A stretch of 64,000 nt of DNA from Bacteroidota bacterium (GCA_013288905.1 JABDAW010000001.1:7723-71722), one strand, 5' to 3'. Positions 6,241 through 56,072 are shown, counted from the first letter of the stretch. Notes: generated by a model not told the origin, from the letters alone. Translations and numbers: made by a program.

Positions 6241-6425
6241 ATTTAGTTTCTTTTGGTCACCATTTAGTTTCTTTTGGTCACCATTTAGTTTCTATTGGTC
6301 ACCATTTAGTTTCTATTGGTCACCATTTAGTTTCTTTTGGTCACCATTTAGTTTCTTTTGGTCACCATTTAGTTTCTTTTGGTCACCATTTAGTTTCTTT
6401 TGGTCGCCAATTAGTATCTTTTGAA
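6241..6425. repeat. Intergenic tandem array, 21-bp unit atttagtttcttttggtcacc, 8 good copies plus 1 degenerate.
   Basis: Copies start at 6241, 6262, 6283, 6304, 6325, 6346, 6367, 6388 and 6409. Copies 3-4 carry a tctattgg variant. Confidence 0.95.
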
Positions 6426-6857
6426 TTATTTTATTCTTCATTTTCTGAAAAATATCGGCTCAACACCCATTAACCTCCAATAGAACAATCAATTCTGGAT
6501 GCCTTGTTTTGAAGAATCAGCCCTTTTGAAGCCTTCAAAACCTGATAAAAGGGATAATTCAGGGCAATTATTCAATTCAAAAAAGAGGGTGATTGAGATT
6601 AAGGGGTATTACAGGCGTTTCTAAGCATTTTTGAATTTCAAATGGACAAAGTGCCACTTGATAGTTTTATTTGAAGGGTTTTTATAGAATATGATCCTTA
6701 GTCAGGACAATCAAATAATAATTGCTTCATTCATAACCTTAATCAAACTGCCAAACTTTCAATAAAAATTTAAAAAGATAGTTGCCTCTTTGAAATAAGA
6801 ACTAAGAAAAAGGGTCTTGAAGAATGGAAAATTTATCAGGAAAAGCTTCCTTGATTA

Positions 6858-9800
6858 CTAATTCTTTCGATAAATAAGATTTAATAAAGCAGGAAAAACG
6901 ATGAGCAGCAGTGGCAGCGCAAGAATTAATCCTCCTATCACCGCGATGGCTAATGGCTGATGCAATTGTGCGCCCGTGCCGATGCCCAAAGCTAATGGAA
7001 GCAAGGCAATGATGGCTCCGGTAGCGGTCATTAATTTCGGACGAAGACGTACAGAGATGGCATAGAGGATGGCTTGTTTATTTTTTAATTCTGTAGTGAT
7101 CCTTCGCCTTGTAGTTTTGAATTGCTGGAAGGTGAAGATGGCATTTTCGGCGATGATTCCTACTATCATGATGATGCCCGTATAGCTGCCCACATTGAGT
7201 GGCGTATCGGTGATGAAGAGCGCAAGAATGCTGCCGGCCGTGCCAAGTATGGCTATCAGAAATATCAGAAAAGCTATTTTATAATCTCTGAATAAGAAAA
7301 TTATTACCGCAAAAACCAGGAGGCTCGCCGCTATAAGGATCATTAATAATTCGTTGAACGATTTCTCTTGTTGAGCATACGCGCCTCCATAAGAAATGTG
7401 GTATCCCGGTGGCATGTGGATGCTGTCGGTTACCTTCCTTTTAATATCCTTCATCACGCTTCCAAGGTCACGATTGTCAAGGCGTGCCGTCACTGCCACC
7501 ATATTCTCAAGGTTCTCTCTTTGAATCTCCGCTACGCCAGGTTTTATTTCATAATCTGCAAATTCTGTAAAAGGTTTTAGTTTGCCACCAGGCAGGAAAA
7601 TAAACTGGTTCTTCAGATCCTTCACAGTATTTGATTTGTTATGAGGATAGACCATCCTGATATTGGTTAATTGTTGATTCTCGACGATAGTTCCGATTAT
7701 ATTTCCTTCAAGCTGAGTCTGCAACTGGAACTGGAAATTGTTAGGAGAAATAGAATATTGACCGAGCTTCACGAAGTCAGGTTTTACATTGACATAAGGA
7801 CCCGCGATGGTGATTCCATTGAATACATCGGCAGTGCCTTTGGTGCTATCTACTATGGTTTCGACCTTCATCGCATATTCCTTTAATTCATCCTGATTAG
7901 GACCATAGATTTTTACTTCGACAGGCTGGGCAGAAGACATCAGATCACCCAGCATGTCGCCGATTATCTGTCCGAATTCAATGGTCAATGCAGGTTGAGT
8001 GGCGAGGATTTGCTGGCGGATATCATCAATCACTTCATCGGTAGTTTTCTTGCGGTCTTTCTTTAATTGAATCAGATAATCACCCCTGTTGGGCTCCGTT
8101 AAAAAGAAACCCATCTCCGTTCCGGTACGTCTTGAATAAGCCTCTACCTCAGGGACTTTGATGATGAGCTTCTCTACCTCACGAAGCATCCTGTCAGTCT
8201 CCTCAAGAGAAGTTCCTGGAGGCGATTTGTAGTCAAGCACAATGGTTCCTTCGTCCATATCAGGCAGGAATCCTGTTTCTAATTTAGGATAGATAATACA
8301 TACCGAAACGATTAATCCAACAATAAAAAGAATACTCAAAACAGGTCGCTCAACAAAGAAAGAAACCCAGCCTTTGCTGATAAGGTTTTCGGCATCATCA
8401 TCAGCTTTGTGGATAAACTTTTCAGAGATGGTTAATTCATCGGCACCTGCAAGATTTTCTCTTCTCGAAAGTATTAAATAAATCACCGGAAGAGCCAGCC
8501 ATGTGACAAAGAAAGAACTCACCAAAGTAAATATCATAGTATTGGTAAGGACATTGAAATAAGCCCCGGCGACACCTCCCATCAAAAAGAAAGGAACAAA
8601 AATAACGATGGTGCTGATGGATGATCCCACCATCGTCGGGAAGAGATATTTGATAGAGCGAACGATGAGAATAGAAGAACGCTCATGAGGATATTCTTCA
8701 TGGGTTCGATGTATCTGTTCTGTCACGACTATGGCATCATCAATGATTAAAGCGATGGCTGCTGCGATGGCACCCAGGGTCATTATGTTGAAAGTATATC
8801 CGAATGCATAAAGCAATATCAATGTCAATCCCAAAGTCAATGGGATAGTCAATAATATAGTAATACTCGCCTTCCACGAACGAAGGAATATTATAGATAC
8901 CGAGATAGCCAGCAACAGTCCTATCCACAGGCTATCTGAAACACTTTTAATTGTTGTATTAACGAAGTCAGCTTGAATGTAATATGGTTTTAATTCTACT
9001 TTAGGAGGAAGAATTTTAGCAAGTTCCTTGACCTTATCTTCCATATCATTTGATACATCCAACAGGTTTGCATTGGGCTGACGAAAGACATTTATCAATA
9101 AAGCTTCCTTACCATTAGCATTGATTTTAGTGTATTCCACCTGCTCTTTTATATTAACTTCGCTGATATCTTTTAATCTGGTAACTCTTTTTCCATCGTT
9201 TTTAATCACGACATTCTCAAGATCTTCTTTGCTGTAAATCTGGGCATCCGTGAGGGTGAGATACAACCTTCGATAATCTGTCGAGTAGCCATTAGAATTA
9301 ATGAAGTTGGTCTGGCTAAGAACGGTATTAATTGTATCGGGAGTTATGGACAGCGCACTCATCTTGTGAATATCCGGCATCACCCAATATTCTTTGGTTT
9401 TGCCCCCGATAACCTTCACACTTGCCACACCATCAACTTGAGACAGGAAAGGTTTGATGAGGGTATTAGCGATAATTTTTAATTCGATAGCACTCTTAAC
9501 ATCGCTCTCCAAAGTATAACCCATTACAGCAAGTGCGGCTGGGTTCATCTTGACCACCATAATATTCAAATCATTTGGAAGGACATTTCTAATCTCCGCA
9601 ATCTTTGATTCCATCATTTGCTGGCTCAAATCCATGTCAGCCTTCCAATCCATATATGCAGAAATCTCACAGCTTCCTCTGCTGGTAGTGCTTTGAATCA
9701 ACTTCAAATCATGAACCTGCTTGATGGCATTCTCAATAGGTTTGGTAACAGTTACCAAAGTCTTTTCTACAGGCTGTTCACCATTATCAACAATGATTTT

Positions 9801-9929
9801 TATCTTAGGAAAAGTAATCTCCGGAAACAAAGAAGTCTTGATGTTTACAAAAGAAAATACCCCACCAATAACCACTATCAGCATCAGGAAGGTTATCGAA
9901 TTTTTATGCCTTATGTAAAAATGTCTCAT
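6858..9929 (-). CDS. RND efflux transporter permease subunit (AcrB/CzcA superfamily).
   Basis: ~1023 aa with 12-TM RND topology and two large periplasmic loops. The N-terminus MRHFYIRHKNSITFLMLIVVIGGVFSF is typical for the family. I prefer the ATG at 9929 over the track start at 10001, which would add a non-hydrophobic 24-aa extension. Confidence 0.85.
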   Translation of the reverse strand: MRHFYIRHKNSITFLMLIVVIGGVFSFVNIKTSLFPEITFPKIKIIVDNGEQPVEKTLVTVTKPIENAIKQVHDLKLIQSTTSRGSCEISAYMDWKADMDLSQQMMESKIAEIRNVLPNDLNIMVVKMNPAALAVMGYTLESDVKSAIELKIIANTLIKPFLSQVDGVASVKVIGGKTKEYWVMPDIHKMSALSITPDTINTVLSQTNFINSNGYSTDYRRLYLTLTDAQIYSKEDLENVVIKNDGKRVTRLKDISEVNIKEQVEYTKINANGKEALLINVFRQPNANLLDVSNDMEDKVKELAKILPPKVELKPYYIQADFVNTTIKSVSDSLWIGLLLAISVSIIFLRSWKASITILLTIPLTLGLTLILLYAFGYTFNIMTLGAIAAAIALIIDDAIVVTEQIHRTHEEYPHERSSILIVRSIKYLFPTMVGSSISTIVIFVPFFLMGGVAGAYFNVLTNTMIFTLVSSFFVTWLALPVIYLILSRRENLAGADELTISEKFIHKADDDAENLISKGWVSFFVERPVLSILFIVGLIVSVCIIYPKLETGFLPDMDEGTIVLDYKSPPGTSLEETDRMLREVEKLIIKVPEVEAYSRRTGTEMGFFLTEPNRGDYLIQLKKDRKKTTDEVIDDIRQQILATQPALTIEFGQIIGDMLGDLMSSAQPVEVKIYGPNQDELKEYAMKVETIVDSTKGTADVFNGITIAGPYVNVKPDFVKLGQYSISPNNFQFQLQTQLEGNIIGTIVENQQLTNIRMVYPHNKSNTVKDLKNQFIFLPGGKLKPFTEFADYEIKPGVAEIQRENLENMVAVTARLDNRDLGSVMKDIKRKVTDSIHMPPGYHISYGGAYAQQEKSFNELLMILIAASLLVFAVIIFLFRDYKIAFLIFLIAILGTAGSILALFITDTPLNVGSYTGIIMIVGIIAENAIFTFQQFKTTRRRITTELKNKQAILYAISVRLRPKLMTATGAIIALLPLALGIGTGAQLHQPLAIAVIGGLILALPLLLIVFPALLNLIYRKN

Positions 9930-10165
9930 TGATTTTTCTTTTTCTGCGGCGGTAAAAATAGACAATGTCCGTTGAATTCGTATTACTTTAGAATGATTCA
10001 ACGATAAAGAGATTCAACGACCATCTTCAACTTACACTCCATCAACTTAAAGAAGATTTATCCGGTTTTGAAAACGGCTTTACCTTTGCCATTCAAAAGC
10101 CATAGGGAAAATGGAAGTCTTGAAAAAGGTATCCTTCAAAACGAAAATGAACCCCTTTTTATCCC

Positions 10166-10396
10166 AACTCTACATATCAAAAGCTGAACTCTACATATTA
10201 AGAGTTCAACTCTATATATGTAGAGTCGAACTCTATAACTGTTTTATTCAACAATATATATGTAGAATCCAATTCTACACCTAAAGAGCTGAACTTTTAA
10301 TATGAAGAGTTCAACTCTACAGTTGTAGAATTCGACTTTACATATATAGAGTTCAACTTTACAGTTGTAGAGTTGAACTCTATATATGTAGAATTG
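10166..10396. repeat. Intergenic tandem array, 21-bp period, 11 units. Each unit is internally palindromic (aactcta...tagagtt).
   Basis: The aactc/aattc/aactt anchors fall at 10166, 10187, 10208, 10229, 10250, 10271, 10292, 10313, 10334, 10355 and 10376. Confidence 0.9.
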
Positions 10397-10487
10397 GAGA
10401 AAAAAATGTCCTGATTCAAATAAGTTACTTGTGAGACACAAGAACAAAATTTTTCTTTACTTTGCACGCAATTAAAAATATATCAAT

Positions 10488-12931: not shown

Positions 12932-13175
12932 CTATAATTAGCTCCTGTCCTTCTATAATTAACTTCTGTCCTTCTATAATTAGCTTCTGTCCTTCTATAA
13001 TTAGCTCCTGTCCTTCTATAATTAACTTCTGTCCTTCTATAATTAGCTCCTGTCCTTCTATAATTGGTTTCCGTCCTTCTATAATTAACTTCTGTCCTTC
13101 TATAATTGGTTTCCGTCCTTCTATAATTAACTTCTGTCCTTCTATAATTAGCTTCCGTCCTTCTATAATTGGTAT
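12932..13175. repeat. Intergenic tandem array, 21-bp unit ctataatt(a/g)(g/a)(c/t)t(c/t)c(t/c)gtccttct, 12 copies in four variants.
   Basis: The ctataatt anchor falls at 12932, 12953, 12974, 12995, 13016, 13037, 13058, 13079, 13100, 13121, 13142 and 13163. Confidence 0.95.
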
Positions 13176-16992: not shown

Positions 16993-17262
16993 CAGTGAAT
17001 AGTGAATAGTGAATAGTGAACAGTGAACAGTGAACAGTGAACAGTGAACAGTGAACAGTGAATAGTGAATAGTGAATAGTGAATAGTGAATAGTGAATAG
17101 TGAATAGTGAATAGTGAATAGTGAATAGTGAATAGTGAATAGTGAATAGTGAACAGTGAACAGTGAATAGTGAACAGTGAACAGTGAATAGTGAACAGTG
17201 AATAGTGAACAGTGAACAGTGAATAGTGAATAGTGAATAGTGAATAGTGAACAGGCTACTAT
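16993..17262. repeat. Heptanucleotide microsatellite AGTGAA(T/C), about 38 copies.
   Basis: Directly visible. The T and C variants occur in blocks. It produces the artefactual SLFT(I/V)HY ORF 16987..17274. Confidence 0.95.
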
Positions 17263-17288: not shown

Positions 17289-17321
17289 GAACGCCCTTCG
17301 ATAAATCATCGAAGGGCGTTC
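17289..17321. terminator. Bidirectional rho-independent terminator hairpin.
   Basis: Perfect 14-bp stem gaacgcccttcgat / atcgaagggcgttc with a 5-nt loop. An A6 run lies on one side and a T-rich run on the other. It sits between convergent genes ending at 16982 (+) and 17358 (-). Confidence 0.8.
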
Positions 17322-17357: not shown

Positions 17358-18320
17358 CTACGCATGCACCACTCTCCAAACCTTCATCAAGCCCTTGCTT
17401 ACCAGGGAAGGATGCACAAATCGCAAGTTCACGCTATAAGTATTTTGCTTCACATCACCAGGATTAAAAGTGATTTTATTAGCATCATTAATCGGCTTAT
17501 CCAGATCATACATATAAACAATGTCCGTCCCCGCATTCGTAATATTCTTCAATAGCACAGCATTGTGAATATCCTTGGTAACACCCTCCTTCAAAGTAAT
17601 TGGCTGCTCCACCTGATGCGGAGGATGAATGATTTCAAATTGAGTGCTGTAAGTAAATAAATCAAGAATAGCTTTTGAGGCAGGAAAGGCAAGTTCGGCA
17701 ACGGTATGAACCACTTGATAGCTGGTATAAAGTTCATTTCCTACTTTGTTTTTATCAATCGTCGCTGCATTTGTGATTGCTACCTGACCTGTATAATCTG
17801 TTTCACTTTGTTGCAGGTCAGTTTTTGCAGTGTCGCAAGTGGTGGCAAAATCATCCGTCATGCCGCCAATAACCATGTCAGCAGTGTTGTTTGCCACGAA
17901 AGTTATGAGGGCATTGATTAATTCCAAAGCATCGCCATAATGCCTGACCGAAGAATCAAAATAGGCATAACCAGCTTGATTTTTTTTAGTTGCCCACATT
18001 TCAGGATCGCTTTCCCATCTGGTTTTTATATAGCTCAAAGCTGTCTTGAAAACGCCATGAACATTCGACATTTCGATGGCACGTGCATGATGGAATTCCC
18101 TGTCATTGGACTCGCGGGTATGCACATCGGGCATTAATAACCAAGCTGCTTTTTTGGTCCTTTGCAAGCCCAGATTTATTTCCGTCATGTTCGTGTTTTT
18201 CGCAAATAATGCAGCCATATTATTATGCTCTGCATCAAAGCCGATTCCGAGGATTTGATTCAAATCGCCGTCTGAACCTTTCCATTTTCTTACTAAACCA
18301 TCTTCAATTTCTACTGTCAT
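17358..18320 (-). CDS. Hypothetical protein (320 aa), no family recognised.
   Basis: Long ORF with a -7 box 30 bp upstream and a strong terminator downstream. No signal peptide. Confidence 0.55.
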   Translation of the reverse strand: MTVEIEDGLVRKWKGSDGDLNQILGIGFDAEHNNMAALFAKNTNMTEINLGLQRTKKAAWLLMPDVHTRESNDREFHHARAIEMSNVHGVFKTALSYIKTRWESDPEMWATKKNQAGYAYFDSSVRHYGDALELINALITFVANNTADMVIGGMTDDFATTCDTAKTDLQQSETDYTGQVAITNAATIDKNKVGNELYTSYQVVHTVAELAFPASKAILDLFTYSTQFEIIHPPHQVEQPITLKEGVTKDIHNAVLLKNITNAGTDIVYMYDLDKPINDANKITFNPGDVKQNTYSVNLRFVHPSLVSKGLMKVWRVVHA

Positions 18321-18349
18321 TTTAATCTATTTTTATTTGTTTAACGGTT

Positions 18350-18357
18350 CAAAATTA
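18350..18357 (-). promoter_or_regulatory. Candidate -7 box TAATTTTG.
   Basis: Exact TAnnTTTG on the minus strand, 30 bp upstream of the ATG at 18320. Confidence 0.4.
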
Positions 18358-18400
18358 CATTTAATAAAGTTCTTATACTAATTATTACAAAAATATATTT

Positions 18401-18443
18401 CCATTTTCCAATTTCAATTGTCAATTATCAATTGTCAATTCAT
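18401..18443. repeat. Heptamer micro-array (ccatttt ccaattt caattgt caattat caattgt caattca).
   Basis: Six consecutive 7-bp units. The same CAATTGT family recurs at 21954-21995. Confidence 0.85.
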
Positions 18444-18579
18444 TCCCTAATGTCCCTGCCCAATGGATTAACAGCCGTTTTGAATTTTACAATTCCAGTT
18501 AGAAATTTATTTTAATATTTTTTTCTGATGTCTCCCAAATTTTTGGAAAAAGGTCGAAAACCGGAGAATCAAGTCTAAA

Positions 18580-18890
18580 AACTTTTTGAAATGCAAGAGC
18601 AACTTTTGAAATTGCAGGAGCAACTTTTGAAATTGCAGGAGAAACTTTACGACCTGCAAGAGCTACTTTTGAAAATGAGGAGGCATTTTGGGCGAAAAAC
18701 TGAGAAATTTGGGATATTACATGAAAAACTTCAAAACAGGAGGGAACTTCCATGATTTCAAAATGCACTCATTTACAGCGCATCCCAAAAACTTTTGAAA
18801 ATGCAGGAGCTACTTTTGAAATTGCGAGAGCTACTTTTGAAAATGCAGGAGCTACTTTTGAAAATGCAGGAGCTACTTTGAAGGACGAAT
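18580..18890. repeat. Intergenic 21-bp array, ~15 units (aacttttgaaaatgcaggagc), with well-kept ends and a degenerate centre that stays in phase.
   Basis: Unit starts at 18601, 18622, 18643, 18664 ... 18790, 18811, 18832 and 18853. 18790 - 18601 = 189 = 9 x 21. Confidence 0.9.
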
Positions 18891-19011
18891 AAGGGCTTTT
18901 AGACCTGTGGACGCTTATTTTAGGCGGTAAACCGCGAACTTTACCATTAAAATCTTATACCCTATTGCTAATATCAAAATTACCTTGATTCGTATTACCA
19001 GAAGAATTATC

Positions 19012-19019
19012 TAACTTTG
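19012..19019 (+). promoter_or_regulatory. Candidate -7 box TAACTTTG.
   Basis: Exact TAnnTTTG, 27 bp upstream of the ATG at 19046. Confidence 0.35.
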
Positions 19020-19045
19020 CATCTCAAATCAAGAAAGAATTCCCA

Positions 19046-19174
19046 ATGAAAAGACTCCTTATTATAGTAACGTTTTCCCTCCTCACCCTTAACGGCTATT
19101 GCCAAATGGGGGAATGGACTTGGATGAATGGGGCTGAAAAGATTGGAGGAGTTTTTGTAGAAAGGATAAAATAA
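19046..19174 (+). pseudogene. 42-codon stub: signal peptide plus the first residues of a kelch/beta-propeller-type secreted protein.
   Basis: MKRLLIIVTFSLLTLNGYCQMGEWTWMNGAEKIGGVFVERIK*. The (Q)..WTWM.G......GV(Y/F) opening is typical of Bacteroidota kelch-repeat T9SS proteins, which are hundreds of aa long. Here a stop follows at codon 43. Confidence 0.4.
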
Positions 19175-19199
19175 AATACATAATGTATCGTACAATTAT

Positions 19200-19207
19200 T
19201 AGATTTG
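19200..19207 (+). promoter_or_regulatory. Candidate -7 box TAGATTTG.
   Basis: Exact TAnnTTTG, 8 bp before the ATG at 19215. This implies a leaderless mRNA or use of Met12 at 19248. Confidence 0.35.
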
Positions 19208-19214
19208 CCGCCGA

Positions 19215-19922
19215 ATGAACAAAGAAAATCATCTTTTGACAGAAGTAATGTGTGCTTTTTGGTTTGACCAAAATCAAAATTCATGGGACAGTACTTATTT
19301 TGGTAAGTTTTTTGAGTTGATGGAATCAGAAGGGTATAATGAAAAAGAAGAACAAAAAAACTTCCAGATTCAATTTGAATTAAAAGGCAATGACCTTCAA
19401 AATCCAGGAGCCAAATCTGATGAACTACCTCCAAGAATGGTCTTTAGAAACAAAGAAGAAAATTATGCAATAATTTTAACAGCTAATTTTATTTCATTTC
19501 ATAAGTTGACACCTTATGAGAGTTGGGAAAAGATGTTAGAGGAGCAAATTATTCCAGGCTTGGAAAAATATTTTTCCATGGGATTGGGTAAAGGTTTATT
19601 GCAAGTTCAAATGCTTTATTTGAATAATTATACATTTCCAAATGATACAAATTTTTCTGACCATTTCCACTTTTTGCCATTGATGGATAAGCTTGAAATC
19701 GGAACAGAAAAAAGTATTAATTTTATTAGTCAATATGAATTAGAATCAAATTTACTTTCCCAAATCAGACTTCATACACTTCCCAATAACAATGAAAATA
19801 AAGGAGTCTTTTTGGAATGCAGTTGCCTTGCATTTAATAAAACTCAATCGGAAGATTGGAAAACTCTTGCCCAACAAGCTCATGATACAAACAATAAAAT
19901 TTTTAAAATAATAACCAAATAA
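19215..19922 (+). CDS. Hypothetical protein, resembles the TIGR04255 family. First gene of a coupled three-gene operon.
   Basis: 235 aa. The opening L.EV.CAFWF and the overall size recall TIGR04255 proteins, a recollection that has not been searched. Its stop TAA abuts the next ATG (taaATG at 19920-19925). Confidence 0.45.
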   Translation: MNKENHLLTEVMCAFWFDQNQNSWDSTYFGKFFELMESEGYNEKEEQKNFQIQFELKGNDLQNPGAKSDELPPRMVFRNKEENYAIILTANFISFHKLTPYESWEKMLEEQIIPGLEKYFSMGLGKGLLQVQMLYLNNYTFPNDTNFSDHFHFLPLMDKLEIGTEKSINFISQYELESNLLSQIRLHTLPNNNENKGVFLECSCLAFNKTQSEDWKTLAQQAHDTNNKIFKIITK

Positions 19923-20933: not shown

Positions 20934-21026
20934 TCTAATAGAATCTTCAACCATTTGGGGCAAAAACTTTTTGAATCCACCAAACCATCCAATCAATGGA
21001 ATGGCAAGATAAATAACACTGACGGA

Positions 21027-21120
21027 GAAGCCCCAGATGGCACCTATTATTATCTCCTCACCCTCAACGACCTCACCGGAAAGCCCTATTCCTACAAAGG
21101 CTTCCTCGCCCTGATAAGAT
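21027..21120. repeat. Left copy of a ~94-bp direct repeat bracketing the PIN toxin-antitoxin cassette.
   Basis: gaagcccc...attatctcctcaccctcaacgacctcaccggaaagccctattcctacaaaggcttcctc(g/a)ccctgataagat. The core is almost identical to 21833-21926. Confidence 0.9.
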
Positions 21121-21138
21121 GATTCCATAAAGTTTCGC

Positions 21139-21377: not shown

Positions 21378-21833
21378 ATGAAGCCAGCCAAAATCATTGT
21401 TGATGCCAACATTGTATTCAGTGGAATCCTTAATTCCAATGGAAAGATTGGTGACCTTCTGATTAATTCAAAAGAGTATTTCAACTTCATTGCTCCTGAT
21501 TTTTTACGAATAGAAATTAAGAAACAGTATCCTAAACTAATTAAGATTTCAGGCATGTCTTTAGAACAAATTCAGGAAGCGGAATTTCATATTTCAAAAG
21601 ACTTAACTTTTATTTCTGAAGAACAAATCAGCAAAACCATTTGGCATAATGCAATTGAATTAGTTAAAGATATTGATCCCAAAGACGCTACTTATTTAGC
21701 CTATTAAAAACATTTCAAATGTAAAATATGGTCAGGCGATAAGCAGTTAATCAAAGGGCTTTCAAAGAAAGGCATTACTAATTTTATTACTACAGAAGAA
21801 CTCTTTCAACTAAGAAAAATTAAAAATAAATAG
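21378..21833 (+). pseudogene. PIN-domain toxin interrupted by an in-frame TAA at 21705-21707.
   Basis: IIVDANIVFSGIL (first acidic residue), then DIDPKDATYLAY*KHFKCKIWSGDKQLIKGL. The same frame continues to the TAG at 21831-21833, and the conserved C-terminal (T/S)GD motif lies after the stop. Confidence 0.6.
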
Positions 21834-21926
21834 AAGCCCCTACAGCACCTGTCATTATCTCCTCACCCTCAACGACCTCACCGGAAAGCCCTATTCCTAC
21901 AAAGGCTTCCTCACCCTGATAAGATA
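21833..21926. repeat. Right copy of the ~94-bp direct repeat.
   Basis: It starts at the last base (G, 21833) of the TAG that ends the full-length PIN frame. See 21027-21120. Confidence 0.9.
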
Positions 21927-21953
21927 ATTTGTAATGAGCAATTGGCAACCCTC

Positions 21954-21995
21954 ACAATGTCAATTGTCCATTGTCAATTATACATTGTCAATTGA
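21954..21995. repeat. Heptamer micro-array (acaatgt caattgt ccattgt caattat acattgt caattga).
   Basis: Six 7-bp units ending 1 bp before the stop codon (21997-21999) of the 1546-aa gene. Same family and orientation as 18401-18443. Confidence 0.85.
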
Positions 21996-36776: not shown

Positions 36777-36894
36777 AAAAAATGTTGGGGCTGATGGATA
36801 AATTTGTTATCCATCAGCACTAATATAAGGTGTACAAAAATAATTTGTAAGAGCAATGATTACTTCAAAATCCAAATTGAGAAATCCTGTAAAA

Positions 36895-37140: not shown

Positions 37141-37300
37141 GTAAATTTCTCAACTTACCGATATTTATTGTTAAAGTGAATGAAAAGTAAGGCTAAGGCT
37201 CCAAATAAGGTTTCAGGGTCAAGAAGTATATTGTTGAATAAAATGAAAAGAATGATTTGATAATTTCTAATAGTAATAATAAAATTAAAAAAATAAAAAG

Positions 37301-44562: not shown

Positions 44563-45090
44563 GAATAAAAATGTTAAAATTGGGGTGTTTTTTCTGGGGA
44601 AATGGGTGGGTAGAAAAGGCAGAAAAAGTGTTAACATTTAACATAATATTTTAGAGATTGCTTGATAATGAGCAAGATCCACCACAAAGGTGGATAGTAT
44701 TGGGGGACAGGAGCATAGTTTTGAGGATTAAATGGATGGTTTTAACGAACAGATGGAGGGTATTGGCGATTGGGAGCAAAAAGTGGGTTTTTGGGTGTGG
44801 TGGAGGGTGGGGCGGGACTGACATTCTGTCAGTGAGGTGGGGTAAATGGTGCATTAATGGCAGGAATGAAGGGTTTGAGGGGAGTATTTTGGGGAACAGG
44901 GGGTAAAAAATCTCATTAAGATGAAGGTTTTTTTGGATGGGGTGGAGGATATTGTGGATGAGATGGAATGTGTTAAAATTGGGATGCAGGGTTTGGGGAA
45001 TCGGGTGGAGGGTTTTGGGAATATGAGGAGGGATTTTGGGGATTTGGGAAGGGGTTGTTTTATTTGGGTGGAGGTTCAGAAAAAGAGTGG
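44563..45090. repeat. Degenerate, strand-asymmetric G-rich 21-bp array (~25 units, consensus about GGTGGAGGGTWTTGGGGAWWW).
   Basis: ggtgga falls at 44689, 44941, 45004 and 45067, and gatgga at 44752 and 44962 (all differences are multiples of 21). gttaaaattgg falls at 44573 and 44972 (399 = 19 x 21). Confidence 0.8.
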
Positions 45091-45459
45091 GAATGGGAAA
45101 AATAGGAACGCAGATAAAAATGATTGCTTATGACAAGGTATGATTTTTATGCACCCGCATACATACTTTCAAGATAATGAACCGTATCCCCGGACATATA
45201 CACATAATCCTCCAGCATATATTTATGTGCAAAAGCATCCTGACAGCTGCCACCTGCTGCTGTAAGATTCAGAAAAAGAGTGGGAATGGGAAAAATAGGA
45301 ACGCAGATAAAAATGATTGCTTATGACAAGGTATGATTTTTATGCACCCGCATACATATTTTCAAGATAATGAACCGTATCCCCCGACATATACACATAA
45401 TCTTCCACCATATATTCTTGCGCATAAGCATCCTGACATCTGCCCCCTGCTGCTGTAAG
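45075..45459. repeat. Tandem duplication, 2 x 193 bp.
   Basis: ttcagaaaaagagtgggaatggg... starts at 45075 and 45268. The first ~90 bp of each copy are identical. The substitutions cluster in the part that is coding on the minus strand. Confidence 0.9.
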
Positions 45460-46929: not shown

Positions 46930-47742
46930 TTATAATTTCTTTCTCCATTCAGGATCATTAAAATCAACTTTTGTAGCTTCTTTCCAAATTATATCATAAT
47001 GCATTTTAGCAAAGTGGCTAAAATAGAAACTGTTCCCTTTAAGTTTTAATTTTAAATGGGGTGATTCTGTACAATTTCTTTTTCTCCAAAAAAAACCAAG
47101 ATAAATAATGTCATCAACTGCATAAATACTAAATGTACTATTACCATCAAAAAGTCTGATTTCAAAATTATTAGGATGGTTTGACTCTGAATATAATTGA
47201 AAAAACTTTGCAAGGTTTGAGTTAATTTCTCTAGGAACATAGTCAGTATCTTCGACTACTCCTAATTCTTGTCCACGAGCTTTAGCATAATTTGATTTAG
47301 GATTTAAAATCAATATTTCAACTTCCATATTTTTTTCAAGGGCAATTCTTATCGCGTTTTCTACAGGAATGAAATTTCCAATCCAAGTTTGCAAAATCCA
47401 TATTTTGTGTTTTCCAACCATCACATCATATTCAAAGTCATAAACTGGAAGTTTTTCATGTGATGAAATAATACCTGATTCTAATTCATATTGTACTTGT
47501 TTTAGTTTTTCAACAAGCAGAATTTCTTCATCTTTTCTAATGAGTTTTGCATAGATAAAATGGGATGCAATTGCAGCAGCTACAAATGCTCCAATTTCAC
47601 CAATAAAATGAATCCAGTGATTTTCTGTTTGATGATTTTCTGCAATTAGCATTAATATCAAACCAATTAAAAACACTATACCTACTATAAGGTAATATTT
47701 CCAGGAAAAAAGATTTGGTATTCTGTCAGAATTTTTTGCCAT
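46930..47742 (-). CDS. Two-TM protein with a C-terminal DUF5919/PLD-fold-like domain lacking HKD. Candidate membrane-anchored defence effector or sensor.
   Basis: TM1 YYLIVGIVFLIGLILMLIA and TM2 FIGEIGAFVAAAIASHFIY. The C-domain pattern KIWILQTWIGNF...VEILILNPKSNYAKARGQE...IRLFDGNSTFSIYAVDDIIYLGFFW...SPHLKLK....FYFSHF..HYDIIW recalls DUF5919. This is a recollection that has not been searched. Confidence 0.5.
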   Translation of the reverse strand: MAKNSDRIPNLFSWKYYLIVGIVFLIGLILMLIAENHQTENHWIHFIGEIGAFVAAAIASHFIYAKLIRKDEEILLVEKLKQVQYELESGIISSHEKLPVYDFEYDVMVGKHKIWILQTWIGNFIPVENAIRIALEKNMEVEILILNPKSNYAKARGQELGVVEDTDYVPREINSNLAKFFQLYSESNHPNNFEIRLFDGNSTFSIYAVDDIIYLGFFWRKRNCTESPHLKLKLKGNSFYFSHFAKMHYDIIWKEATKVDFNDPEWRKKL

Positions 47743-47958
47743 ATTTTAAATTTGTACTTTATTGTTTTTGTCTGATTATTAAATGAAACCATACAGGTGC
47801 AGGGGGCACCTGTCCGGTTTTATCGTCATTAAAAATTTATAATTTAGTTTTTTTGATATAAAATAGCAATTCTATTAGGTCGGCTATATCCAACACATCG
47901 GCTATATCCTGCATATCGGGTTATATCCTGCACGTCGGGTGTATTCACTAATTATTTA

Positions 47959-48858
47959 TTAACTTATTTTCTTTCTGCTTGATGCAACAAATATTTCAGG
48001 ATTATCATCAGTCAAATCTACATCATATTCCCTTCTGTCTAAAATCTGCAAGAAATGAATTACGGAATTATCTTCAGGTACTATTTGTTCATTTTCAACT
48101 CTGATTAAAACGTTTAAAGACTGGCATTTAGCAATTAGTTTTTCCATTGAGGTTCGTTCCAAATCTTCTCTCGATTTTATTGACGCAATCAATTTGGCTG
48201 CTGCTTTTGAGTGACCTACATAATTTGCAAGATAATTGAAATTTACAAAAGCAATCCGAGTTGTTAAAAGTCTTGTAGCATCTGCTGCAGTTCGTAAAAT
48301 TTCTTCTTCAATATTTGCAATAAAAGTAAAGCCAGTTGGATGAAGAATATCTATAACTAATTCATGAATAATAAAATCGAAATCAATATCCAATTTGAAA
48401 ATATCGTCTACTACCACTTTCAAAGTATCATCAACTAATTGGATTAATTTATTATGTTTTTTTAATAGCCCTTTAAATTGTGAAGGTCTTCTTACCGCAA
48501 TTTGTTTAGCACCATTAATATGATGAAATACTGCAAAATAATATGTAATTTTATTTGCAATTTCAGAAAGGACTAAATTTGAAACAGGAATATTTGGTTG
48601 ATTATATAAATTATTAAGAGAATTAAGATTTTGGTTGTTTAAAGGAATTGTCAATTTTTCATCTTGACCATATTTTTCACTAGCTTCAAAAAGTAACGGA
48701 TTACCATCTATAGCCAAATATGTATTGTAAAATGTTTCATGCATTTCATACAACGATTGTCTTACTGAATCGTCAATTGGGATAAGAGCAATTATTTCTT
48801 GCCCATCGATAATAGAGCAAATTCCAAATTCAATACTACGAAAATCTTCAAATGGCAT
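47959..48858 (-). CDS. kwaB: KwaB-like protein (DUF4868-like), second gene of a Kiwa-type pair.
   Basis: 299 aa and cytoplasmic. The central pattern IAVRRPSQFKGLL...IFKLDIDFDFIIHELVIDILHPTGFTFIANIEEE and the C-terminal ...IVPEDNSVIHFLQILD resemble DUF4868 as I remember it. It overlaps the preceding 4-TM gene by 11 nt. Confidence 0.5.
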   Translation of the reverse strand: MPFEDFRSIEFGICSIIDGQEIIALIPIDDSVRQSLYEMHETFYNTYLAIDGNPLLFEASEKYGQDEKLTIPLNNQNLNSLNNLYNQPNIPVSNLVLSEIANKITYYFAVFHHINGAKQIAVRRPSQFKGLLKKHNKLIQLVDDTLKVVVDDIFKLDIDFDFIIHELVIDILHPTGFTFIANIEEEILRTAADATRLLTTRIAFVNFNYLANYVGHSKAAAKLIASIKSREDLERTSMEKLIAKCQSLNVLIRVENEQIVPEDNSVIHFLQILDRREYDVDLTDDNPEIFVASSRKKIS

Positions 48859-49399
48859 ATTTATAATTTTTTAGTTCAATAAAAACAGAATTACTTATTC
48901 GATGGACTTTTAGCTCTTTGATATTTGATGGTATTCTTGTTCTCTTGGTTAATAATACAGAACAGTTATAACTATCAATTGTATAAACGCGATAACCAAG
49001 AATTGCAAAAAGTATATTGATAAAATGTAAATTCATATTCCACAATACAAACACAACAAAAAAGATTGCGCTTATCATAGCAACAAACTCTCTATTAGTG
49101 GTAATTGTCACACTAAAAAGAGGAAGCAAAATAGTGATAAGATAAGTAAATAAATATTCTCTATTGGTTTTTGTTTCAGAAACATCTAATAAGAAAGTAT
49201 CGTTACTTTTCTTTGAAAAGTAAATTCTTAACCAAATAAAAAGATAAGGAATAACAACTAAAAAACTAACAGCAATCCATAAATACTTATCACAGATGAC
49301 ATGATCAAATCCTTTTATACCAATCAAAATAAACAAGGGCGCCATGCTGCTTAAAAGCATCATTAACTTTATTAAAGGAAGACCTTCATTTGATTTCAT
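48848..49399 (-). CDS. kwaA: KwaA-like four-TM membrane protein.
   Basis: 183 aa. TM segments LIKLMMLLSSMAPLFILIGI, LWIAVSFLVVIPYLFIWLRIYF, YLFTYLITILLPLFSV and FVAMISAIFFVVFVLW..INILFAILGY. It sits directly upstream of and overlapping the DUF4868-like gene, which is the Kiwa gene order. Confidence 0.5.
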   Translation of the reverse strand: MKSNEGLPLIKLMMLLSSMAPLFILIGIKGFDHVICDKYLWIAVSFLVVIPYLFIWLRIYFSKKSNDTFLLDVSETKTNREYLFTYLITILLPLFSVTITTNREFVAMISAIFFVVFVLWNMNLHFINILFAILGYRVYTIDSYNCSVLLTKRTRIPSNIKELKVHRISNSVFIELKNYKYAI

Positions 49400-49401
49400 T
49401 T

Positions 49402-49785
49402 TTATAAATTTTCATTTATCACTTCAAAGCCGATAAATTGAGAGTCACTATAGTCAAGCATAGTGCCATCCCTTTGTGTTGTACATAATATTGTTAAGGC
49501 AGTAAAATCAGAAGGTTTTTCCCTTTCTAATCCATCATTCCAAATGTAATTAAAATCCATATTTATAATTTCTTTTACAAATTGAGGATCCTCTTTATAC
49601 AATCTTTTTGCATCAATCATAACAAATTGTCTGTTCCTTCCATTTTCAAAAGCAAGTGGAATAATATGCATATCTTCATAAGTGCCCTCAGTCCATATTT
49701 GGCATTTATATATTACACCATGTTTTAATTTGAAAAATGGTTCTTTAAGTTTTATCGAACTTTCGTACATTGAATTTTCATTCAT
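49402..49785 (-). CDS. Hypothetical protein (127 aa), tightly coupled to the kwaA-like gene.
   Basis: Its stop at 49402 leaves only 2 nt before the next ATG at 49399. No family recognised. Confidence 0.5.
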   Translation of the reverse strand: MNENSMYESSIKLKEPFFKLKHGVIYKCQIWTEGTYEDMHIIPLAFENGRNRQFVMIDAKRLYKEDPQFVKEIINMDFNYIWNDGLEREKPSDFTALTILCTTQRDGTMLDYSDSQFIGFEVINENL

Positions 49786-49846
49786 GATATTATTGTTTGT
49801 ATAAATTTATTTCTTTTTTTGTTTGCAAAGATACTTTTATAAAATC

Positions 49847-50521
49847 TTATAATCCCTTACCATGAAATCTATTTCTAAAATCATCAAGAAGTCTTTGACT
49901 GATTTTTTGGTCTAATCCATCAATAGTTCTTATTCCTTCTATTGGCAAAAATCTTAATTCCTGAGTTTCAATCGGAGAATTTAAGGTATATAGATTATTT
50001 GCTACAGACTGAATATTTATATCCTTTACATTCATTAAAGTTATAGTAATGCAATATGATTTGGAAGAAGTAAAGTTGTCAAGATAAAACGAAACTCCCT
50101 TCGTTATATATATTGTTGCTTTTCTGATGACCCAATCAAAATCAATAACCATATCATTATTCATGTAAGGGTTCTTATCAATTTTTAAATTATGATCAAA
50201 TATTTCAATAGCCCCATTATGTAACCAATTCACATAAAGTAATTCATTATATATAACCATTCCTTCCTCATTAGAATATCTTAAGATATAAGGATTATTG
50301 CCAGAGGGGTCATTATTTAGTAATGAATCAAAATATTTAAACTTCTCACTTTTGATTTCATCAGTTAAAGCTGTTTGAGATATATTCTCAATTCCTGTAG
50401 GAACTATATGAATTAGTATACCACTTCTATTAGAGGTAAATGGAGTTAAGACAGGAGAGATTTTAAATCTTTCTATTCTTTGATGTAATAATTGGAAGTC
50501 CATTTTTTTTTCTTTCATCAT
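49847..50521 (-). CDS. Hypothetical protein (218-224 aa), first gene of the four-gene cluster.
   Basis: ORF with three possible ATGs (50521, 50518, 50503). There is a 61-bp gap to the next gene. No family recognised. Confidence 0.5.
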   Translation of the reverse strand: MMKEKKMDFQLLHQRIERFKISPVLTPFTSNRSGILIHIVPTGIENISQTALTDEIKSEKFKYFDSLLNNDPSGNNPYILRYSNEEGMVIYNELLYVNWLHNGAIEIFDHNLKIDKNPYMNNDMVIDFDWVIRKATIYITKGVSFYLDNFTSSKSYCITITLMNVKDINIQSVANNLYTLNSPIETQELRFLPIEGIRTIDGLDQKISQRLLDDFRNRFHGKGL

Positions 50522-50566
50522 TTTATGACTGCGTTCCCCTCTTGGGGCGCAGCAATAAAATGATGA
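50515..50566. other. Long hairpin / REP-like palindrome covering the first two ATGs of the 224-aa ORF.
   Basis: tcatcattttat...ataaaatgatga (perfect 12-bp outer stem) enclosing gactgcgttcccc tctt ggggcgcagca (imperfect inner stem). It contains the GGAACGCAG core on the minus strand. Confidence 0.75.
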
Positions 50567-50610
50567 TTAGTAGTATCGGGATTGTTGGTTTTTGGCATGG
50601 TTTGGTTATT

Positions 50611-51036
50611 TTATTTGAAAGGGTTAATAATGGTCAGTTTGGATTCTATTACCAAGCCGTCTTGCATGTCTTCGGAATAGAGGATTTCGCAGTTATTTTC
50701 TAAAGCAGAAGATACGATTAAGCTATCCCACCAGCTTAATTGATATTTATTAGAAATTTTGAAAGCTGAATGGAATGTTGAAGGATTGAGCAAGACTACA
50801 TTAAATTTTTCGAGTAACTCTATTCCATGATTGTAGGATTTTTCTTTTGACAGTTTAAGGCTTCTCATACAAGCATTAACATTTTCTGCAACAACCTGTG
50901 TGCTGATAATGTATTTTTTAGAAACAAAGGCAAGGACTATTTCGCGTTTCACAAGATCTTTATCCATCAAATAGACAAGAATATTTGAATCCAAAAATGT
51001 TGGTTTAGCTTCTATCATCTCTGTCATAAAGTTCAT
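50611..51036 (-). CDS. vapC: PIN-domain ribonuclease toxin (VapC-like).
   Basis: FLDSNILVYL (Asp1), ...STQVVAEN... (Glu), WWDSLIVSSA (Asp3) and LYSEDMQDG (Asp4). The true start is probably Met4 or Met7 (51027/51018). Confidence 0.75.
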   Translation of the reverse strand: MNFMTEMIEAKPTFLDSNILVYLMDKDLVKREIVLAFVSKKYIISTQVVAENVNACMRSLKLSKEKSYNHGIELLEKFNVVLLNPSTFHSAFKISNKYQLSWWDSLIVSSALENNCEILYSEDMQDGLVIESKLTIINPFK

Positions 51037-51336: not shown

Positions 51337-51759
51337 TTATTTTGAGGCATATTCTACCGTCCATTCTATTCCATATTTGTCTCTGAACATCCCGAAGTAG
51401 GAACCCCAGGCACTGTCGGCTATGGGCATTTCTATGTTTCCGCCTGCTGATAGTCCATTAAATAATTTGTCGGCTTCTTCGCGACTTTCTGTACTGACAG
51501 CTATCTTGGAACGGTTTTCATTTTCATTTACCCTTCCCATAAATTCGGGAACATCATTGGCTATTAAAATGTTATTGCCTATGGGCAAAGCAATGTGCAT
51601 GATTTTATTTGCTTCATTTTCCGGTATAGGGAATTCCGTGCTCGAGAGGTCTTTGAAACGGACTATCCTGGAGAACTGTCCGCCAAAAACCGATTTGTAG
51701 AAATTGAAGGCTTCTTCGGCATTTCCGTTGAAGTTGATGTGGGGATTTATTTGGGGCAT
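51337..51759 (-). CDS. VOC/glyoxalase-fold protein (PhnB/YjdN-like).
   Basis: INPHINFNGNAEEAFNFYKSVFGG...MHIALPIG...AWGSYFGMFRDKYGIEW is the PhnB-like VOC pattern. Confidence 0.7.
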   Translation of the reverse strand: MPQINPHINFNGNAEEAFNFYKSVFGGQFSRIVRFKDLSSTEFPIPENEANKIMHIALPIGNNILIANDVPEFMGRVNENENRSKIAVSTESREEADKLFNGLSAGGNIEMPIADSAWGSYFGMFRDKYGIEWTVEYASK

Positions 51760-51779
51760 GGGGTTATTGTTTTAAAATT

Positions 51780-52049
51780 GGAACGCAGATGATGCAGATT
51801 GTTTATGACAAGATATGATTTATTGATTCCTAGGAAAAAATCATATCTTTTCATATAAATCAGCGGTATCTGCGTTCCTATTGTTATTTGATACATAGGA
51901 ACGCAGATGACGCGGATTGTTATGATTAAATATGATCTTAGGATTCCAAGCAAAAAATCATATCTTTTCATAACAATCCGCGGAATCTGCGTTCCTATTC
52001 TCTTAAAAAAATCATATCTTTTCATATAAATCAGCGGTATCTGCGTTCC
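51780..52049. repeat. REP-like imperfect hairpin elements with GGAACGCAGAT termini: two full copies plus one right half.
   Basis: Element A at 51780-51888 and element B at 51897-51996 each start with ggaacgcagat and end with atctgcgttcc, and have complementary inner arms (..atgacaagatatgat / atcatatcttttcat..). A right arm alone lies at 52008-52049. Confidence 0.85.
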
Positions 52050-52053
52050 CATC

Positions 52054-55205: not shown

Positions 55206-55606
55206 TAAATCAAGATAGTATATAAACGATAGGTTTTCCAATTATCAAAACCCTTCTGTAGAAAACCTGAAGGGAGCGTGGATAGAATTACCTTTTAGGA
55301 CTTGGGTTCAAAAATCTTTGTAGTGTTTATTTTCATGGTTCCAAAACATTCATGAACAGCAGCATTAGGAATTGATAAGGAATAAAAATTTCTTTGTATA
55401 GAAGTAAAATTTATTGACTTGGAATTGAATAAGGAAGATATAAAATTTCTTCATCAATGCTTAATAGTTTAAGAGCAATATTTGATTCCAAAACATTTGA
55501 ATCAAGAAGCAGAATAAAGATATCCAGAAGTTAAACAATCAGCATTGGAAGTCCAATTTCTAAGCTTATTTGTACCATTTTATTACATAAAAGCAAGGAA
55601 ACATTG

Positions 55607-55860
55607 TGTGGTAGTAATACTACTAATGTTAGAAGTTTTACTTTTAAGCTTAGTAGTTGAACTACCAACATTAGAAGTTTTACTTTTAAGCTTAGTAGTT
55701 GAACTACCAACATTAGAAGTTTTACTACTAAGCTTAGTAGTAAAACTACCAATGTTAGAAGTTTTACTACTAAGCTTAGTAGTTGAACTACCAATGTTAG
55801 AAGTTTTACTACTAAGCTTAGTAGTTGAACTACCATGCTTGAAAGTTTTACTAACAGACA
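55607..55860. repeat. Intergenic 42-bp array (6 units), each unit made of two related 21-mers (ttagaagttttact... / ttagtagttgaact...).
   Basis: ttagaagtttta falls at 55629, 55671, 55713, 55755 and 55797, with a variant at 55839. All three overlapping track ORFs here are repeat artefacts. Confidence 0.95.
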
Positions 55861-55904
55861 ATGTTTCTTTACTTATTAGCATTGAAATGTTGCATCTTGT
55901 CATT

Positions 55905-56072
55905 GAAAAAGAACTTCCTGACCAAGATCTTCAGGAAAGAGATATGGATGTATACCTTTAATGACAGGGAGTTTCGCTTTGATTAATAGAAAAAGGAATT
56001 CCAAATCAAGAACTTCTATAAAGAGATCAGGATGTATTTCTTTAATGATCGGAAGTAGAAAACCTTAATCAT
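55905..56072. repeat. Tandem doublet with an 84-bp (4 x 21) period.
   Basis: gaaaaagaacttcctgaccaagatcttcaggaaagagatatggatgtatacctttaatgac at 55905 matches gaaaaaggaattccaaatcaagaacttctataaagagatcaggatgtatttctttaatgat at 55989. Confidence 0.75.

Follow-up and report, generated by a model that had tools for sequence, protein, structure and literature searches.

Intergenic tandem arrays with a fixed 21-bp period and locus-specific unit sequences in an uncultured soil Bacteroidota clade

Plasmid R6K carries seven 22-bp iterons, and parC of plasmid R1 consists of five plus five iterons placed around a promoter core. BOX elements of Streptococcus pneumoniae and the NIMEs of Neisseria are modular repeats dispersed between genes, and the tandem repeats of Borg extrachromosomal elements reportedly occur in many unit lengths. 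Borg repeats are reported to be pervasive and locus-specific, to originate locally and independently, and to evolve fast (Schoelmerich et al. 2023, PMC9879509). Heptamer repeats form a further class, which includes the cyanobacterial STRR sequences as well as TAACTGA and other heptamers in Beggiatoaceae, Cyanobacteria and a few Bacteroidetes (MacGregor 2015, PMC4679880, summarising Mrazek 2007). An earlier note on a 64,000-nucleotide stretch of Bacteroidota DNA, hereafter the window, described intergenic arrays that share a strict 21-bp period and differ in unit sequence, and held that no known class combines fixed period, locus-specific sequence and such density. Our literature search found no such class either, and we could not find a description of a fixed-period rule with differing sequence for bacterial repeats.

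Occurrence, register and unit sequences of the arrays

TRF reported period 21 at every locus listed in the earlier note, with 3 to 11 copies per array, and the units aligned when the sequence was laid out in rows of 21 bases. Over 11.9 kb of intergenic DNA, self-match reached 0.388, 0.374, 0.365 and 0.359 at lags of 21, 42, 63 and 84, and ranged from 0.27 to 0.31 at all remaining lags from 2 to 90. The fixed period was thereby confirmed, with peaks at multiples of 21 only; coding DNA showed 3-periodicity only. All arrays are intergenic and occur, as previously described, in divergent, convergent and tandem gene contexts. The statement that nearly every gap longer than about 200 bp holds an array was too strong, since 10 of about 19 gaps of at least 200 bp contain a 21-bp array and two more contain heptamers alone.

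The array at 6241-6429 (unit ATTTAGTTTCTTTTGGTCACC; TRF 6240-6423, 8.8 copies, 96% matches) is flanked by two minus-strand genes and comprises eight near-identical units and one decayed terminal unit, and that at 12932-13170 has 11 units of AATTAGCTTCTGTCCTTCTAT (TRF 11.4 copies, 88%). Within these two arrays (6241 and 12936), units match one another at 88-96% and are thus recently amplified. The 11 units at 10165-10401 (array 10171; TRF 10165-10392, 10.9 copies, 66%) occupy a divergent gap. The repeated unit consists of a perfect 20-bp palindrome with one additional base (AACTCTACAT followed by ATGTAGAGTT); identity to the consensus averages 78%, in an exact register. A short array of 3.4 units lies in the convergent gap at 28588-28658 (TRF). 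The degenerate array at 36880-37152 (array 36901; about 13 units, several TRF rows over 36919-37151) contains GTCTCGAGAC palindromes and one +1 slip, an exception to the strict register described earlier. A second degenerate array (44582-45085), G-rich on the plus strand with consensus CGGGTGGAGGGTTTTGGGGAT, was recognised in 21-base rows (TRF 44988-45053), and its 19 units from 44687 retain phase at 60% identity to the consensus. At 55611-56093 (TRF 55618-55853, period 21/42), two near-palindromes alternate over 55611-55853 and are followed by a degenerate tail holding an 84-bp doublet (55905-56072, 62% identity); 23 units share one register. In arrays 10171, 44687 and 55611-56093, split-half PWM analysis located the second half at shift 0 with wide margins. 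The 21-bp register outlasts decay of the units to about 60% identity.

Each array draws on a sequence of its own. Best-match scores among 15 independent unit consensuses were indistinguishable from those of shuffles (p=0.26), in agreement with the locus specificity claimed earlier; this specificity does not extend to the arrays at 18581/18791 and 31721/31952, which belong to one dispersed composite. Dyads spanning the full unit were found in arrays 10171 and 55611 (10/10 and 9/10 pairs), and the other units lack them. Short palindromes were enriched in the units (Fisher p about 1e-5 for the full set of units), also when the two full palindromes were left out (p about 0.006, recalculated by hand). 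Stops close all six frames of arrays 10171 and 36901, and the other 21-bp arrays have one to four frames open on either strand. With 0 to 4 of 6 frames open per array, the earlier view that the arrays are non-coding was upheld.

The trait is specific to one uncultured soil Bacteroidota clade. In the 113 kb sampled from this clade, array periods were 21 (20 arrays), 42 (one), 7 (six) and 19 (one), with no array of 20 or 22 bp, and array density was about 180 per Mb. In 2.14 Mb of other Bacteroidota, periods of 7 (38 arrays) and 8 bp (15) dominate and four arrays have period 21; the enrichment of period 21 in the clade is about 95-fold. Relatives L084, L176 and L179 have 21/42-bp arrays of their own, and sister lineages have 7- and 8-bp arrays instead. 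Some arrays (L146, 10171) combine conserved and hypervariable positions within their units. Contigs from JGI 3300020675, JGI 3300021407, ENA ERZ27253762 and Logan SRR8430188 were 100% identical to the window over the arrays that they span; these four data sets are clonal and identical. Strain contig L167 (99.3% identical; a short-read contig ending at the array) apparently has 8 units versus 11 at 12932, with a different order of variants. Copy differences among L176, L177 and L178 are unreliable, because a scaffold gap filled with N and a probable collapse of repeats contribute to them.

The array-core-array composite and neighbouring heptamer arrays

Two arrays separated by a non-repeated core form a composite of about 300-400 bp, which is present in three copies in 69 kb, within a duplicated segment of about 2.1 kb. 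The first copy (18581-18879, minus strand; TRF 18584-18674 and 18791-18879) consists of five units (18581-18685), a 105-bp core (18686-18790) and four units (18791-18879), with the arrays spaced exactly 210 bp (10 x 21). It is located 260 bp upstream of the start codon of a 320-aa ORF of unknown function (17358-18320, minus strand) that travels with the composite. The second copy (31721-32059, plus strand; TRF 31723-31811 and 31958-32059) has the inverse orientation and its own homogenised unit, AAAGTTGYTGTCYTTTTTTGA, with its arrays in one register (best lags at multiples of 21). The third is found to the left of the window, at a distance of about 3.1-3.5 kb. Two of the three copies in this genome lack the ORF.

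In 5/5 composite copies, among them orthologues with protein identities of 89% and 56%, the arrays stand at lag 0 modulo 21, and this register spans 105-150 bp of non-repeated core. The unit variant is specific to each copy and the same on both sides of the core, showing within-locus homogenisation of units by concerted evolution. Furthermore, composite copies differ by exactly one 21-bp unit. The window composite differs from that of L179 by 68 substitutions and one 21-bp indel, with no small internal indels, versus about three small internal indels per 15 substitutions, one of them a 7-bp heptamer unit, in the adjacent non-repeat flanks of a different pair (window and L173). In these alignments, the sole unit-length difference seen between related copies amounts to a whole 21-bp unit. 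At its ends, the composite showed neither terminal inverted repeats nor duplications of a target. The core holds the conserved motif CTCATTTACAGCRCATCCCAAAA, and RNAalifold found no supported structure in it. The ORF has only four protein clusters in 5.8 billion sequences, no Pfam match, no informative PDB sequence match and an uninformative AlphaFold2 model (pLDDT 46).

A terminator-like hairpin (GAACGCCCTTCGAT...ATCGAAGGGCGTTC and a T run; 17289-17321, minus strand) lies between the stop of the ORF and a heptamer array, (AGTGAAT/C) x37, at 16994-17252 (TRF 16994-17251, 36.9 copies). This array adjoins the stop codon of the convergent gene, and a paralogous copy with 53 units is located left of the window. 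Upstream of the ORF is a short heptamer array (CAATTGT/AATTGAC; 18397-18440, TRF), and L179 has (AATTATA)n instead at the orthologous site.

Explanations for the fixed period

We favour, as the best reading, minisatellites that were seeded from local sequence and have changed through gene conversion and in steps of whole units. A constraint independent of sequence would lock their period to two helical turns; it may be either selected helical phasing or a 21-bp mutational ruler. Because the constraint would act on period rather than sequence, the arrays are most likely non-coding minisatellites acting as helically phased structural DNA, an explanation that we hold tentatively and with somewhat less than even confidence. 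If the period corresponds to two turns of B-DNA, every unit would face the same side of the helix. An array could then form a coherently bent stretch, or serve as a lattice to which a protein that recognises DNA shape and not sequence binds cooperatively. Whatever the orientation of the genes, it would be placed between transcription units. The short dyad symmetries of many units may aid the growth of arrays by slipped-strand mispairing.

Two wedge models predicted coherent curvature only at period 21 (partly 20 or 22); end-to-end/contour ratios were 0.69-0.79 at coherent periods and at least 0.95 for periods of 19 or less and of 23 or more. Against helical phasing, real units were no more bent than shuffled ones (median rank 0.28 and 0.47), with some (A37027, L084b) predicted to be straight, and no candidate binding protein was identified. 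Among the neighbours tested (20 window ORFs, mostly hypotheticals), Pfam recognised no DNA-binding family, Rep and ParR/RHH included. Moreover, arrays in convergent gaps, where little selection on phase would be expected, are also of 21 bp, which fits a mutational ruler equally well.

Such a ruler would be a clade-specific replication, repair or integration activity that duplicates about two helical turns of any sequence without function, as in fixed-length target-site or CRISPR-repeat duplication, and the arrays would be neutral or selfish by-products later subject to slippage and gene conversion. It would accommodate a period that stays the same whatever the gene context, even in convergent gaps, in which regulatory phasing is unexpected, the unrelated unit sequences, the sharp lineage specificity relative to sister lineages with 7- and 8-bp arrays, and the position of arrays at places where gene order differs between relatives. 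However, Pfam revealed no integrase, reverse transcriptase or transposase next to the arrays among the 20 window ORFs, and no array was interrupted by an element with a flanking 21-bp duplication, the apparent second composite of L177 being a run of N. An activity confined to array birth would also leave unexplained the long retention of register both in decayed arrays and across the non-repeated core. We regard a purely mutational origin as possible but rather doubtful.

Sequence-specific binding, with a cognate protein for each array as in iterons, operators or centromeres, finds its best case in the composite upstream of the 320-aa ORF, which resembles R1 parC (iterons, promoter core, iterons). 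In favour of such binding are the conservation of its layout, unit counts (4, and 5-7) and register ahead of orthologous ORFs, the conserved core motif, the fully palindromic units of two arrays, and the conserved and hypervariable unit positions in L146 and 10171. Nevertheless, we consider it unlikely, as ten unrelated units in 64 kb would require about ten proteins, and the ORF is missing from two of the three composite copies of this genome, contains neither a Rep nor a DNA-binding domain that could be recognised, and has a poor model.

It is quite improbable that the arrays are fragments or clusters of MITE-, BOX- or REP/BIME-like mobile repeats spread by a transposase such as RAYT. The dispersal of the composite family, the palindromic units of arrays 10171, 55611 and the L176 42-mer, and a Y1 transposase gene adjoining an ORF homologue in another contig would agree with this origin. 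By contrast, none of the other eight arrays was found a second time in the window or its 5-kb extension, and the composite ends, as noted, lack both target duplications and terminal inverted repeats. REP, BIME and REPIN elements, imperfect palindromes of 20-40 bp, number in the hundreds, dispersed with one shared sequence and accompanied by a RAYT gene; here the palindromic units have no second copy in 69 kb, and Y1_Tnp was not found among the 20 window ORFs scanned.

Very improbable, and for this window largely refuted, is a derivation of the 21-bp arrays as higher-order (3 x 7) products of heptamer simple-sequence repeats, a class known from cyanobacteria and some Bacteroidetes. Heptamer arrays do share gaps with 21-bp arrays, the L179 heptamers drift into a 21/22-bp period, and L030, from another genome, consists of three diverged heptamers (TTCCAAA-TTTCAGA-TTCCAAG; 15/21 lag-7 matches, p<0.001). 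Yet lag-7 self-similarity was at chance level in the units of the window, L084 and L146 (all p>0.2), even in the least-decayed arrays (6241, 12936), and no 14-, 28- or 35-bp arrays were found in the 113 kb of the clade. The T/C variants of the 37-unit array show no lag-3 (21-bp) order (p=0.14), which makes its fit to the modulus, pointed out previously, trivial, and the 3 x 7 framing of the period does not stand. A unit of 7 bp, or one visibly composed of heptamers, was found only in the arrays at 16994, 18409, 21958 and 33001 and in L030; given the lack of lag-7 similarity in all window units, the heptamer arrays form a separate, already known class. Finally, we give almost no credence to decayed heptad-repeat coding sequence, for which 21 bp would equal seven codons and spurious ORFs of 40-140 aa cross several arrays, against the closed or variably open frames described above, or to an assembly artefact, since four independent data sets yielded identical arrays.

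Comparison with known repeat classes

Consistent with the earlier note, the arrays do not belong to REP/BIME, CRISPR, iterons or STRR as a class. Their units abut without spacers and cas families are absent among the ORFs scanned, unlike CRISPR, and a scan of the whole window with Rfam gave no hits at gathering score, with none at E<=1 over 18300-19220. Heptamer simple-sequence repeats are likewise intergenic and lineage-restricted, with a fixed period and unit-step indels, and true heptamers occur in the window and at many related loci. However, a heptamer family uses the same sequence again at many loci; the 21-mers do not, nor are they trimers of heptamers.

Iterons and type II partition centromeres share strictly phased direct repeats of about two (or one) helical turns and the composite layout upstream of a gene; here the spacing is integral in helical turns, with a period of exactly 21 bp and both composite sides in register in all five copies. 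In contrast, iterons form one or few arrays of one sequence per replicon, next to rep or par, and the window holds many unrelated chromosomal arrays without a recognisable Rep or ParR. BOX elements and NIMEs resemble the composite as dispersed intergenic modules with a variable number of internal units, a likeness limited to this one array family; they are unrelated in sequence and follow no period rule. Borg repeats lie in genes as well as between them, whereas all arrays here are intergenic and share one period.

In organisation, the arrays resemble minisatellites and VNTRs such as the mycobacterial MIRU-type intergenic repeats: head-to-tail copies of a 10-100-bp unit, intergenic and non-coding, with decayed terminal units and whole-unit change as indicated by the 21-bp indel between composite copies. 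VNTR sets, however, vary in unit length by locus and usually share sequence within a family, whereas in this clade the length is fixed at 21 (or 42) bp and the sequence is arbitrary.

Period-21 arrays and their genomic setting

TRF recovered arrays of period 21 at every locus where the earlier note had placed one, as well as heptamer arrays. Set in 21-base rows, the arrays align without slipping, even the very degenerate ones (10171-10401 and 44687-45085), and the degenerate tail running from 55854 to about 56093 also stays aligned. Across the window's 11.9 kb of intergenic DNA, self-match was 0.39, 0.37, 0.37 and 0.36 at lags 21, 42, 63 and 84, versus 0.27-0.31 at all other lags from 2 to 90, so that an excess of 21 over neighbouring periods is present, at least within the window. 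The coding DNA of the window displayed codon periodicity only.

Arrays were found in 10 of about 19 gaps of at least 200 bp, showing that the earlier impression of an array in nearly every long gap was overstated. The mixed gene contexts were confirmed, with arrays in divergent (2), convergent (3) and tandem (4) arrangements. The 15 independent unit consensuses, compared at the best rotation and on both strands, matched no better than shuffles; apart from the dispersed composite described below, units are thus locus-specific as had been claimed, and a cryptic motif common to the arrays was rejected. Furthermore, each 21-bp array has 0 to 4 of 6 reading frames open, and the arrays are noncoding. 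Known RNA was discarded given the lack of an Rfam match and of covarying structure in the core of that array-core-array composite, and assembly artefact was discarded on account of identical arrays in contigs of independent data sets.

The proposed 3 x 7 build did not hold. No unit of the window is self-similar at lag 7, and the 37-unit AGTGAAT heptamer array lacks a 21-bp higher order (a lag-3 test on its variants was negative). Elhai et al. reportedly described small dispersed repeats in heptamer arrays in 2008. We observed that an array of another genome (L030) visibly consists of three diverged heptamers; hence, a route from heptamer to 21 bp exists but did not make the arrays of the window. 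Heptamer arrays form an established class, known from cyanobacteria, Beggiatoaceae and a few Bacteroidetes (PMC4679880). Those of the window are a separate phenomenon that coexists with the 21-bp arrays.

The window comes from the chromosome of an uncultured Bacteroidota bacterium, has 36% G+C and encodes T9SS-type secreted proteins, SprB-like repeats, an RND pump, HolA, an EVE-domain protein and GpsA, together with a small defence-like island. Identical contigs were found in JGI metagenome data (Ga0206829_10025) and in three other data sets, and one related contig bears a soil-metagenome label. GpsA of the nearest GTDB species representatives is only ~70% identical, and these genomes have no array in common with the window. 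For L084, a relative from the same clade, and for L085, the TPR-HolA-EVE block is all that is shared with the window, and its neighbours differ; HolA of L084 is 76% identical to that of the window.

A 225-bp (75-aa) tandem coding repeat of at least 8 copies (89% identity) spans positions 842-2670 and continues leftward into 15900-17015 of L173, the contig reaching left of the window. It sits within a very large minus-strand ORF crossing the window start, and the surrounding JGI gene calls include an SprB / Por_Secre_tail protein. A minus-strand gene run at 46930-51036 encodes a DUF5919 protein (46930-47742), a KwaB-like protein (47959-48858), a PIN-domain protein (50611-51036) and several ORFs without family, and is possibly an anti-phage defence island.

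Other small repeats were also observed. A 193-bp tandem duplication and 117-bp repeats with GGAACGCAGAT ... ATCTGCGTTCC inverted termini lie at 45075-45459 and 51780-52049; the terminal motif occurs 7 times exactly and 9 times with at most one mismatch, compared to 0.6 expected by chance. They look like a separate small repeat family of the accessory/defence-like region, and the 101-aa ORF called over it at 51747-52052 is probably spurious. The hairpin motif TTGGCTNAAGCCAA is found three times in 115 bp (56212-56326; 0.16 expected by chance), next to where the last array degenerates, close to the 3' end of a 2501-aa gene, and these hairpins look like REP-type palindromes. A 99-bp direct repeat (92% identical, 21026-21124 and 21832-21929) brackets a PIN_2-domain gene (21378-21707), and the TGTCAAT/CAATTGT heptamers at 21954-21994 match those at 18409-18440.

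The array-core-array composite and its linked ORF

One composite, in which 4 units are followed by a ~105-bp core and 5-6 further units, occurs three times: as the array pairs 18581/18791 and 31721/31952, and as a third pair that lies 3.1-3.5 kb beyond the left end of the window. Each copy has its own unit variant, which is the same on either side of the core, a pattern of concerted evolution, and a diverged 'odd' unit holds its position among the copies. The array-to-array distance is an exact multiple of 21 bp in all five composite copies.

A 320-aa ORF (17358-18320, minus strand) starts 260 bp downstream of the first composite copy. The third copy belongs to a ~2.1-kb paralogous segment in which this ORF is deleted. 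The upstream composite is kept in ORF orthologues of 89% (L179-L181) and 56% (L176-L178) identity, and the heptamer array downstream of the ORF in the 89% orthologue only. The search for a function of the ORF returned no Pfam family and only noise from PDB sequences; its AlphaFold2 model has a pLDDT of 46, and its family comprises only 4 clusters.

The downstream array of AGTGAAT (reverse complement TTCACTA) contains 37 copies in the window (16994-17252), 53 copies in L173 (19678-20051) and ~6 copies in L179 (1990-2030). It comes after the terminator of the ORF cassette in three copies or orthologues, and touches the stop codon of the convergent neighbour gene in both copies of the window genome. 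On the contigs carrying P0003 (ENA ERZ1426836 / ERZ1426842), a 154-aa Y1 transposase (PF01797, IS200/IS605 or RAYT type) is encoded ~0.7 kb upstream of a homologue that is 58% identical to the 320-aa ORF. On either side of the transposase are ORF calls of 42-43 aa, like those that arrays generate.

Repeat periods across lineages and conservation of phase

Arrays of at least 3 copies were counted in 113 kb of clade sequence, comprising the window with the adjoining 5 kb on its left (L173), and the relatives L084, L176 and L179. The periods found were 21 (20 arrays), 42 (1), 7 (6) and 19 (1), with no other, hence no 20- or 22-bp array. Other Bacteroidota (159 loci, 2.14 Mb) exhibited periods of 7 (38 arrays), 8 (15) and 21 (4), the rest being scattered, which corresponds to a ~95-fold enrichment of 21-bp arrays in the clade. 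Therefore, the 21-bp rule is a clade trait. Neighbouring lineages have preferred short periods of their own: L100, L106, L098, L120, L160 and other, more distant HolA-related loci (44-49% G+C) carry many intergenic 7-bp and 8-bp arrays of up to ~15 copies instead of 21-bp ones, and preferred periods therefore seem lineage-specific across this part of Bacteroidota. A 42-bp array at 18001-18286 of L176 (6.8 copies, 95% matches) has a unit with a CTATCCC...GGGATAG hairpin, and the two halves of the unit agree at 10 of 21 positions by hand count.

The composites of the window and L179 differ by 68 substitutions and a single indel of 21 bp, with no small indel inside them. Non-repeat flanks, compared between the window and L173, showed ~3 small internal indels per 15 substitutions, one of them a 7-bp heptamer unit, although these counts are small. 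Furthermore, arrays decayed to 60-78% identity remained in phase across 230-480 bp in split-half profile tests; one array had a single +1 slip. Taken with the composite register and the absence of 20- and 22-bp arrays from the clade, these observations mean that the 21-bp period is restored or protected by something independent of sequence.

Strain-level copy-number variation is tentatively suggested by L167, a 99.3%-identical short-read contig with 8 units where the window array has 11. Length differences among L176, L177 and L178 were rejected as strain polymorphism since the 'core' there is a run of 100 N and the differences are scaffold-gap artefacts; for the same reason, their second 'array-core-array' structure was not accepted as evidence for an inserted element. 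The L176 assembly has probably collapsed. At a 21-bp array of L176 and L177 (1877-2092), the flanks of these two 99.95%-identical assemblies become unrelated at the left edge of the array, which may reflect a real rearrangement or an assembly chimera.

The 21-bp arrays are thus a real, statistically strong and clade-specific feature. They belong to a known kind, bacterial tandem repeats or minisatellites, and their defining property, of which our literature search for a fixed-21-bp bacterial repeat class found no description, is a period fixed at two turns whatever the sequence, with a phase kept through decay. The arrays disrupt short-read assemblies and give rise to spurious 40-140-aa ORF calls in public databases.

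Possible origins of a fixed period

Twenty-one bp corresponds to two turns of B-DNA. Two dinucleotide wedge models, with the parameter tables used here, predict that any repeated 21-mer would build coherent curvature, and that curvature would average out at periods up to 19 and from 23 upwards. Real units were no more bent than shuffled ones in either model, and selection for extra curvature was rejected; the models therefore show that period alone would suffice for phasing and do not imply selected bending. Short dyad symmetries are enriched in the units, two of which are complete palindromes, and would favour slipped hairpin intermediates. We tentatively favour the reading that the arrays would be phased structural DNA, independent of sequence, that slippage of whole units and gene conversion keep up.

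A near rival, though rather unlikely, is a 21-bp mutational ruler without function, which better explains the uniform period in convergent gaps but accounts less well for the long-term conservation of phase. Sequence-specific binding is improbable overall; the conserved composite, with a layout reminiscent of R1 parC, is the only case in which it is plausible. Mobile elements, derivation from heptamers, coding sequence and artefact are minor explanations.

Beyond the favoured structural reading, the clade could, somewhat doubtfully, possess a sequence-independent 'two-turn ruler', either an enzyme duplicating exactly 21 bp of arbitrary intergenic DNA or an architectural protein lattice tolerating only a 21-bp phase. 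If true, either version would define a new class of genome-structuring repeat, period-defined rather than sequence-defined, and sister lineages may have analogous 7- and 8-bp systems.

Bacterial repeat families such as REP, BOX, CRISPR repeats and STRR are normally defined by sequence. In contrast, in the clade of the window, length alone, equal to two helical turns, is conserved across unrelated sequences, decayed arrays and species at 56% protein identity in a linked gene. Therefore, the long-standing question of why prokaryotic tandem repeats favour certain unit lengths, as in the unexplained preference for heptamers, becomes directly testable.
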